Sequence record: PZ402304.1 | Length of the DNA: 64,000 nt | DNA from: a phage | Strand: one strand, 5' to 3' | Part shown: positions 19,003-23,272 of the stretch, piece after piece | Numbering within the stretch: position 1 is the first letter of the stretch | Layout: the number at the start of each line of letters is the position of its first letter | Translations under genes and position numbers: made by a program | The notes under the pieces: model-generated | The model's database searches: none | What the model was told of the DNA's origin: nothing | The model's input: the letters and a program-made list of their open reading frames with translations, nothing else

Positions 19003-19227
19003 TTATACCACTCGCATGCACATATCGATACCCATATCTTTTGTATAAAAATACTCATCGATGTACCCAGCAAACTTCCCTTTAATATAAAGGACGTCTT
19101 CGCCACAAGGATGGTCTGCCAGAATACGAATATCTTGACGACGTAGACGATACTTTTCCATTAAGAATTTAATTTCAGTTTCAAATTCTTCATCATTATT
19201 AAAGGCATCTTCAATCGAATAACGCAT
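19003..19227 (-). CDS. hypothetical protein (uvsY.-1-like position)
   Basis: 74-aa ORF immediately downstream of uvsY. Confidence 0.6.
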   Translation of the reverse strand: MRYSIEDAFNNDEEFETEIKFLMEKYRLRRQDIRILADHPCGEDVLYIKGKFAGYIDEYFYTKDMGIDMCMRVV

Positions 19228-19640
19228 TATTGCCCCGCTTCAAATTCTCGCATATCCTGGATATGTTTAAGTGCAAAACTACGAGACTTAACTGCGTCAA
19301 GTGCACCACTACAGAACTCAAGTAAAATTCCCCAGTATTGTAAAGTAGTCTCTATTTTAAGCACATCTTTATCTGCAGCCAGGACAGTTTTCATTTCAGA
19401 TTTCTCGTATCGGTCCATACTGAATTCATCACCGTCACCTCGTCCCGAGTAGTAGTCTAATCTTGCTTTTAGAGCAGTTTTCTTCTGAGTCTCTATACGC
19501 AACATTTCTTTACGAATAAATGAGTGCTTACGTAGCCATTTGCTGTATAACTTAACATTATTCGCCGTCTCATATTGCAACTTTGTCATATCAATAGCTA
19601 AGTCTGCGTCTAACTCTTCCTGTAAATCTTCCAGCTTCAT
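19227..19640 (-). CDS. uvsY: UvsY recombination mediator
   Basis: 137 aa from internal ATG (MKLEDLQEEL), matching T4 UvsY length; the 27-codon upstream extension in the ORF track is probably not translated. Confidence 0.9.
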   Translation of the reverse strand: MKLEDLQEELDADLAIDMTKLQYETANNVKLYSKWLRKHSFIRKEMLRIETQKKTALKARLDYYSGRGDGDEFSMDRYEKSEMKTVLAADKDVLKIETTLQYWGILLEFCSGALDAVKSRSFALKHIQDMREFEAGQ

Positions 19641-19695
19641 AATGTTCTCTCTTTTAACTAATAATCTCCCGGCTGTATCGGAAGGACCTAAAACC

Positions 19696-19722
19696 ATTAT
19701 ACATAGGTTGCCTTGAAGCATT
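19696..19722 (-). promoter_or_regulatory. middle promoter with MotA box upstream of uvsY
   Basis: minus strand aaTGCTTCA-N12-TATAAT, the MotA-box architecture. Confidence 0.6.
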
Positions 19723-20119
19723 ACACTCTATTGCTTGACGCTAACTGAAGTTTAATTTGTTCAATATCATCAGGGTTGTCTACGACCGAAAATCTAATCT
19801 CTACTATAACCGTATAGTCATCATATACTGGCGTTACACTTACAGAAAGTTTGTCGATGCGTGGCTCATAGTTACGAACAGCTGCCTGGATATTACGCTC
19901 AATCGTATCGGCTGTAAGTGGTGTCATGTTCTCGAAAAGTTCGTCGACCAAATCGCATCCAAATTCAGGGTCGAAGGGGCGTGAGCCTTTTCTAGTTGTC
20001 ACTATGCCAAGAAGACTATTTTTAATAGAACGAAGTCCTACAGAACGAGCAACATCCTTGTTCCAATCCATACGCATTTCTGGGTCGATATCTGAATAAA
20101 GTTTATTGATATTAGACAT
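19721..20119 (-). CDS. 25: baseplate wedge protein gp25
   Basis: 132 aa, T4 gp25-like. Confidence 0.9.
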   Translation of the reverse strand: MSNINKLYSDIDPEMRMDWNKDVARSVGLRSIKNSLLGIVTTRKGSRPFDPEFGCDLVDELFENMTPLTADTIERNIQAAVRNYEPRIDKLSVSVTPVYDDYTVIVEIRFSVVDNPDDIEQIKLQLASSNRV

Positions 20120-20222
20120 TATAGTAACTCAAAGAATTCTTTGAGCATACGCATTTCTGGGTCGATATCTGAATAAAGTTTATTGATATTAGACATTATA
20201 GTAACTCAAAGAATTCTTTGAG
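20069..20222. repeat. perfect 77-bp tandem direct duplication (2 copies) spanning the gene 26 end and gene 25 start
   Basis: 20069..20145 is identical to 20146..20222 by direct reading; each copy carries the 18-bp palindrome CTCAAAGAATTCTTTGAG. Confidence 0.9.
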
Positions 20223-20822
20223 GCCTCGTATTGTGTGAACGTGTGACGCCCCACATTTGGGACATTTAATAGGGGTTGCCAAATAAATTGATGGCGATAC
20301 TAAAAGATTTTTAATATTGATCATGTCATCTTCTGTTATAAGGCCGTAAAGGTCGTTTATTTCTGCTTCAGTTAAATCTTCAACAGGGATGGACTCTCCG
20401 TTGACAAAAACGGCCTCAATACATGAAGCAATCATTAATGCGATATTTTTATCGTCAAATAATTTAGGTTGACGGAACTTAATTTTAATACCGCTGAACG
20501 AATACCAGGGATCGGCCTGTTCATCTAATTGAGTGTGCAATAAATTCATATAGACTTGAAATGAATGCCCACAGGAACAATTCCAGGTGTGTTCTTGATT
20601 CACTTCACCTAATGAATGTGCCCACAGATTTACCAACAATAGCTCGGCTTCTTGTTTAGTCAAGTTTTTAGCATTAGAGCAATTAGTGATAATATTGTTC
20701 ACTGCTGATTCAATAGTACCGGTAGCCCGCGCACCAATGAGTCCTAAATATTCTTTTAAAGTAAAGGCTCTACAATTCACTTCTTTATCGCCTAAACGTA
20801 CGGTAAACGTATATTTGTACAT
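20196..20822 (-). CDS. 26: baseplate hub subunit gp26
   Basis: 208 aa, T4 gp26-like length; C-terminal Cys pairs. Confidence 0.85.
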   Translation of the reverse strand: MYKYTFTVRLGDKEVNCRAFTLKEYLGLIGARATGTIESAVNNIITNCSNAKNLTKQEAELLLVNLWAHSLGEVNQEHTWNCSCGHSFQVYMNLLHTQLDEQADPWYSFSGIKIKFRQPKLFDDKNIALMIASCIEAVFVNGESIPVEDLTEAEINDLYGLITEDDMINIKNLLVSPSIYLATPIKCPKCGASHVHTIRGLKEFFELL

Positions 20823-22791: not shown

Positions 22792-23272
22792 TAAAAAGGT
22801 AACGATTCCTAAATTAGGGCTCAAACATTATAATCTTTTAAAGGACGTTAAAGGTCCTGACGAAAACATGAAAATCTTAGCTGATTCTATTTGTAAAAAT
22901 ATGAGTCCAGCAGATTTTGATTTTGCATGTCTACACATATTGGAATTTAATAACAAACTTAAGTCTGAAGTTGAAAAAGATGGATTCACTTATAAACTAG
23001 ATGACGTCTATGTATGCCAACGAACAGAATTCCAATTTCAAGGTAATACTTTTTATTTTAGACCCCCAGGCAAATTTGAACAATTCGCTACAATCAGTGA
23101 AATGCTATCAAATTGCTTAATAAAAGTTAATGACGAAGAGAAAGAAATTTCTTTCCTTGAGATGCCTGCTTTTGTAATCAAATGGGCAGAAGACCTTTCG
23201 ACAACTATTGCTATTCCGGGCCCTAATGGCCCTATTAAGGGTATAGCAGAAATTATTGGATTGCTTGAATGA
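22739..23272 (+). CDS. 28: baseplate hub distal subunit gp28
   Basis: 177 aa, overlaps the gene 27 3-prime end. Confidence 0.8.

Follow-up and report, generated by a model that had tools for sequence, protein, structure and literature searches.

A perfect 77-bp tandem repeat between baseplate genes 26 and 25 of a Mosigvirus sequence very probably stems from an untrimmed assembler overlap

In the phage sequence record PZ402304.1, a perfect 77-bp tandem repeat spans the junction of genes 26 and 25 and creates a small open reading frame between them, which raises the question of whether this locus has undergone a genuine rearrangement of its translational coupling or whether the repeat was introduced when the sequence was assembled. 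We analysed a stretch of 64,000 nucleotides of this record (hereafter, the window), which derives from an RB69-like T-even phage of the genus Mosigvirus; it is 97–98% identical to public genomes over 24 kb and is colinear with RB69 from approximately 98.9 kb onward. Our conclusion is that the 77-bp duplication is very probably not a real feature, and we regard it with high confidence as the untrimmed k-mer overlap of a circular SPAdes contig rather than as biology.

Direct string comparison, pattern search and TRF all bear out that positions 20069–20145 and 20146–20222 are identical, as stated in a preliminary description of this DNA. TRF reports a period of 77 with 2.0 copies, 100% matches and a score of 308, and the pattern search returned two matches of the unit at 0 mismatches, with 0 expected from 100 shuffles. 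Neither end of the repeat can be extended by a single base, as 20068 is C and its counterpart 20145 is G, and 20223 is G and its counterpart 20146 is C; comparison of the flanking bases on both sides thus gives 0 bp of microhomology at the duplication boundaries. Within the 64-kb window, this is the sole exact tandem duplication with a period of 25–400. In the Sanger-era genome of RB69 (167,560 bp), exact tandem duplications in the same range of periods are lacking, and tandem repeats do not exceed a period of 21. It is therefore not normal for these genomes to carry long perfect tandem duplications.

The two genes joined at this site are both intact. Gene 26 (20196–20822, minus strand) encodes a baseplate hub subunit/assembly protein of 208 aa, and gene 25 (19721–20119, minus strand) a baseplate wedge subunit of 132 aa. 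Both assignments are based on the ORFs, on the RB69 annotation and on domains found in identical proteins, namely PF12322 (T4_baseplate) for the gene 26 product, which is encoded in identical form on many contigs, and PF04965 (GPW_gp25) for the gene 25 product. As for the adjoining uvsY (window positions 19227–19721, minus strand), gene callers differ on its start, so that products of 164, 156 or 137 aa are given on otherwise near-identical contigs; the RB69 annotation uses the 164-aa form, which has a 1-base overlap with the gene 25 stop.

Read on the minus strand, the duplicated unit runs CTCAAAGAATTCTTTGAGTTACTATAATGTCT...CGTATG and comprises 27 nt from the end of gene 26 (LKEFFELL and the stop codon) together with 51 nt from the beginning of gene 25 (MSNINKLYSDIDPEMRM), the two parts having one A in common (27 + 51 − 1 = 77). 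The 51 nt originally assigned to gene 25 were thus correct, but the 26 nt assigned to gene 26 have to be read as 27 nt when its stop is included, with one A shared. Copy 1 (20069–20145) stands directly before intact gene 25 on the minus strand, and copy 2 (20146–20222) is where gene 26 has its native end and the mini-ORF begins. Between the copies, a novel junction (...TTCTTTGAG/CATACGC..., 20145–20146) is formed, which is absent from the collections searched. We found the ORFs to be as first described, with gene 26 keeping its native end at 20196 and a 25-codon mini-ORF lying at 20119–20196 on the minus strand. Its translation, MSNINKLYSDIDPEMRM+LKEFFELL, joins gp25 residues 1–17 to gp26 residues 201–208. 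The mini-ORF owes its reading frame to the TAATG contained in the duplicated unit: the two TAATG motifs stand 77 nt apart and, because 77 = 2 mod 3, the ATG of one reads in frame into the TAA of the next. The mini-ORF is a by-product of the repeat.

Three origins had been put forward for the duplication, i.e., replication slippage, a selected change in the coupling of gene 26 to gene 25, and an assembly artefact. Slippage is disfavoured, since it requires microhomology at the boundaries and none is seen there. Streisinger-type slipped-strand duplications in T4 do resemble the present repeat in being direct, head-to-tail and perfect; yet, they arise at short direct repeats which leave microhomology at the boundary, whereas here there is none and the length coincides with a parameter of the assembler.

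On the minus strand, the unit opens with the perfect 18-bp palindrome CTCAAAGAATTCTTTGAG, and the boundary of the unit is exactly the outer edge of this palindrome. Its two copies lie at 20128–20145 and 20205–20222 (both on the minus strand); the former is the DNA form of the hairpin belonging to the split translation-initiation region of gene 25, and the latter retains the native 5′ context (GAGG-C-hairpin). No other perfect palindrome of the 64-kb window is as long, and in the single-copy reconstruction it occurs only once, with 0.28 expected in shuffles. A random break would hit either of the two palindrome edge k-mers with a probability of ~1e-5, and for this reason the position of the break needs an explanation. 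Neither the palindrome at the start of the unit nor the identity of 77 with an assembler k-mer size had entered the initial reading of the locus. The centre of the palindrome is an EcoRI site. The second-longest perfect palindrome of the window, GAAAGAAATTTCTTTC (16 bp, 23140–23155), is located near the 3′ end of gene 28, with the start of gene 29 following approximately 115 nt downstream.

The element in which the palindrome lies is already known from the literature. The split translation-initiation region of T4 gene 25 was reportedly described by Nivinskas et al. in 1999 (J Mol Biol 288:291) and by Malys and Nivinskas in 2009 (Mol Microbiol 73:1115). In T4, a distance of 27 nt separates the AUG of gene 25 from its Shine-Dalgarno sequence, and an RNA stem between them shortens the spacing to 11 nt (PMC3014915); mutations that weaken the stem reduce translation (PMC3014915, citing Nivinskas et al., 1999; Malys and Nivinskas, 2009), and the split arrangement is conserved among close T-even phages (PMC3014915). 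The locus studied here shares with T4 the GAGG 27 nt upstream of an AUG, the stem-loop at the end of gene 26 and the TAATG overlap. For the gene 25 hairpin, RNA folding predicts a 7-bp stem with a 4-nt loop. The structure of the junction region has a z-score of only −1.36, and the reality of the hairpin rests on the published experiments, not on this value. In a sample of five relatives, the stem is kept in the T4-type phage RB5, is weakened to a 10-bp palindromic core in a Karamvirus phage, and forms a perfect 18-bp palindrome in the Klebsiella phage PQ569699.1 through a two-sided change of CTC..GAG to CTT..AAG; it is absent from an Acinetobacter phage and from KP15. Among these five, therefore, close T-even phages keep a stem-loop between the Shine-Dalgarno sequence and the AUG, and distant ones lack it. 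The stem change in PQ569699.1 also turns a gp26 residue from E to K. The element as such has no novelty here; its palindrome is of interest as the probable boundary mark of an artefact.

The position of the Shine-Dalgarno sequence matters for what the repeat would do. The GAGG of gene 25 (20224–20227, minus strand; CCTC on the plus strand), an experimentally defined Shine-Dalgarno sequence (PMC3014915), lies one base outside the duplicated unit, so that it is present once, exactly 27 nt from the first ATG and 104 nt from the one that begins the true gene 25. Were the repeat real, it would, unlike the arrangement in T4, hand the Shine-Dalgarno sequence to the mini-ORF instead of gene 25. The proposal that stop/start coupling is preserved through a relay ORF therefore stands as far as the arithmetic of the overlapping codons is concerned, but not as a simple preservation, as the Shine-Dalgarno sequence outside the unit is left 104 nt from the gene 25 AUG.

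These features bear on the possibility of a real and recent tandem duplication in the isolate, promoted by the 18-bp palindrome through hairpin or cruciform stalling, cleavage, or template switching in the course of T-even replication and recombination. Palindromes are known hotspots of rearrangement, and this one could promote a genuine event; its outer edge coincides with a boundary of the duplication in a manner hardly expected by chance, the perfect identity of the copies fits a recent origin, and a phage with both genes intact and the stop/start overlaps kept would be viable in principle. Several observations nevertheless render such an event unlikely. Strand switching driven by a palindrome should yield inverted rather than direct repeats. 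The other boundary, 59 nt further on, has neither microhomology nor any feature of its own, and there is no biological reason for a length that equals exactly the SPAdes default k of 77, whereas the relation k − 18 = 59 accounts for this second boundary. As gene 25 is an essential baseplate gene, moving it to 104 nt from its Shine-Dalgarno sequence, instead of 27 nt, would probably not be neutral. Neither RB69 nor the rest of the window contains an exact tandem duplication of this kind, and the duplication is likewise unseen in the relatives considered below. A random or a planted duplication was rejected because of the joint coincidence of the k value of 77 with the palindrome edge.

The comparison with related genomes that had been suggested as a check was carried out and shows a single copy in the relatives. 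The region is matched by 158 GenBank phage records, and among the matches listed (40 in one search and 15 in another) it is single-copy; in the related records among these matches, a 1201-base query spans 1124 bases, i.e., 77 fewer. We found no match to a 40-mer specific for the junction in 50,697 phage records, and a 32-mer across the junction has no match in IMG/VR, in JGI metagenome contigs or in GTDB genome contigs. Exact look-ups of the gp37 and Alt proteins encoded in the window likewise gave no match. All 21 independent contigs examined, 20 of them from ENA, Logan, NCBI and JGI encoding identical gp26 or gp25 and one from IMG/VR, are single-copy, with gene 26 ending at the gene 25 start and without the novel junction. 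A selected change in the coupling of gene 26 to gene 25 would be expected to appear in relatives, and the single-copy state of these 21 contigs and of the matches listed among the 158 records speaks against it. Among those matches, we also looked for a public record broken at the same spot, as a recurrent SPAdes anchor would produce, and found none. One of the entries carrying both identical gp26 and gp25, ENA ERZ28564815 scaffold_4, has a length of 336,591, about twice that of a Mosigvirus genome (~168 kb), which points to a concatenation of two strains or to an assembly artefact in the form of a head-to-tail dimer.

The circular permutation of T-even genomes causes their assembly graphs to close. 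For reads of ~150 nt, the k values that SPAdes uses by default (k = 21, 33, 55, 77) go up to 77; its default lists include 55, 77, 99 and 127, and the end overlap is 127 bp with longer reads. Identical contig ends of 77 bp and 127 bp have been documented in circularly permuted phages (PMC9409062; PMC5923482), those of 77 bp having been reported with SPAdes defaults (PMC9409062). What we observe at the gene 26/25 junction agrees with an end overlap in the following respects: the length of 77 is an assembler k; the repeat consists of 2.0 copies with 100% identity and differing flanks; the window belongs to a Mosigvirus, with the permutation typical for T-even phages, and three of eight sampled genomes of this genus have end overlaps and had thus assembled as circles; and the repeat is absent from independent assemblies of close relatives (21 contigs and the matches listed of 158 records).

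The base rate of such overlaps was estimated by taking eight Mosigvirus records from GenBank and comparing the 300 bases at their start with the 300 bases at their end. Exact overlaps between end and start were detected in three of them, i.e., PV204681.1 (127 bp; 1–127 = 168579–168705), PQ511148.1 (127 bp) and MK524178.1 (102 bp), and untrimmed assembler overlaps are thus common in deposited Mosigvirus genomes (three of the eight sampled). All three records are labelled ‘complete’ genomes, and two of them bear ‘similar to ...’ misc_features on the truncated pieces of the duplicated genes. Another record, MZ560701.1 (‘partial genome’), opens with an rIIA CDS (1–2214) and closes with a 201-nt CDS also named rIIA (168846–169046), yet has no exact end overlap; the terminal rIIA is possibly a mislabelled rIIA.1 or an unresolved junction.

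The repeat resembles the end overlap of a circular SPAdes contig in its length of 77, its perfect identity, its arbitrary mid-gene position and its occurrence in a circularly permuted phage. It differs in that the two copies are adjacent and internal. An origin by assembly would accordingly demand an additional step, in which the contig was rotated or a record taken as circular was wrapped around, in both cases without trimming. The repeats at the ends of physical phage molecules offer a further comparison. T-even phages package by the headful mechanism and have a terminal redundancy of kilobase scale at permuted positions. Phage terminal redundancy and direct terminal repeats are similar to the present case in that a sequence is present twice at the ‘ends’ of an assembly, but in T-even phages the redundancy is of kilobase scale and permuted rather than a fixed 77-bp repeat in a gene junction. 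We rejected a physical direct terminal repeat (DTR) on the grounds that the repeat sits where the essential genes 26 and 25 meet, in a phage that packages by headful and the relatives of which have no repeat there.

The way in which an end overlap could come to lie inside the record can be outlined as follows. A circularly permuted genome would close into a loop in the de Bruijn graph, and SPAdes would print this loop as a linear contig, the first and last k bases of which would be the same k-mer (k = 77). If the contig were then taken as circular, or re-opened elsewhere, with one copy left untrimmed, an internal perfect 77-bp tandem repeat would result. Under this scheme, the junction at 20145/20146 would be the untrimmed joining point of the circular contig ends, and one of the two 77-bp copies would be the redundant contig-end k-mer.

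The position of the break may be accounted for by the same graph. As a loop edge could not be compressed through the one vertex left, the loop would remain anchored at the last vertex that ever branched, and the contig would start and end with the corresponding 77-mer. The branch itself may have been created by fold-back (inverted chimeric) library reads at the hairpin palindrome of gene 25. Illumina libraries are known to contain chimeric artefact reads at palindromes and inverted repeats (PMC10908179). We modelled this in a toy de Bruijn graph with k = 77, in which the single-copy window was closed into a circle and the fold-back chimera consisted of the left flank, the palindrome and the reverse complement of the left flank. 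Without a chimera, the graph had no branching vertex; upon addition of one fold-back chimera, it contained exactly one branching 77-mer and its conjugate, and this 77-mer was identical to the duplicated unit. Both boundaries are thereby explained, since one is the palindrome edge and the other falls k − 18 = 59 nt further on. That the contig would start and end with the branching 77-mer is the behaviour we would expect of SPAdes from this model. Taken together, we infer the use of SPAdes with k = 77, the presence of fold-back reads and a rotation or wrapping of the contig after assembly. An alternative anchor of the graph, a SNP bubble beside the palindrome, is not supported by the 21 loci compared, in which the 12 nt located 5′ of the hairpin do not vary.

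No palindromes are found at the overlap edges of PV204681.1, PQ511148.1 and MK524178.1, which means that palindrome anchoring is not a general rule; it is a feature of the present case, where the break point, in contrast to the three public records checked, is tied to a palindrome. Of the origins first put forward, the assembly artefact is the one favoured by the length of 77, the perfection of the repeat, the lack of microhomology, its uniqueness, the frequency of untrimmed overlaps in the genus and the geometry of the graph.

Two variants of these readings deserve mention. The duplication could be real but confined to a minority of the phage population, from which the assembler would have taken it into the consensus. 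T-even phages do generate duplications at low frequency, which lends this variant some background; yet, it meets the same objections regarding the length of 77 and the zero microhomology, and a de Bruijn assembler operating at k = 77 should collapse a perfect 77-bp repeat or output a bubble instead of preferring the minor form. We regard it as extremely improbable. The other variant is a different technical join, such as a manual, scaffolding or polishing paste of contigs overlapping by 77 bp, or a misassembly caused by chimeric reads. Adjacent SPAdes contigs that share a vertex overlap by exactly k, and pasting them end to end would give the same appearance; in addition, the 102-bp overlap of MK524178.1 demonstrates that overlaps of other lengths reach GenBank. 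Nothing specific speaks against such a join, which has the same core, an untrimmed overlap at k = 77, the sole difference from the circular-contig scheme being the identity of the joined ends; we assign it only a very slight probability.

A further reading supposes that the duplication is nevertheless real. In that case, which we consider improbable, a duplication triggered at the hairpin palindrome would have moved the split Shine-Dalgarno/hairpin site onto the 25-codon relay ORF. The split ribosome-binding site would then drive the mini-ORF, no Shine-Dalgarno sequence would precede gene 25's own copy of the hairpin, and translation of gene 25 would depend entirely on termination-reinitiation at the second TAATG. 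Such a duplication would probably lower the expression of an essential baseplate protein, and the isolate would constitute a natural experiment on the importance of the split ribosome-binding site.

As an untrimmed contig overlap, the repeat and its mini-ORF warrant neither annotation nor interpretation, and one 77-bp copy is to be removed from the genome. The locus illustrates that untrimmed overlaps, once rotated, pose as perfect tandem duplications and give rise to small ORFs that look plausible, and that fold-back reads can pin a break point to a palindrome, so that a meaningful-looking position is no argument for the reality of a duplication. We propose a screen which would flag exact 2.0-copy tandem repeats with a period of 55, 77, 99 or 127. 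The sole value of the repeat in this Mosigvirus sequence lies in a lesson of quality control, of which it is a clean example: an assembler overlap may imitate a functional-looking duplication.
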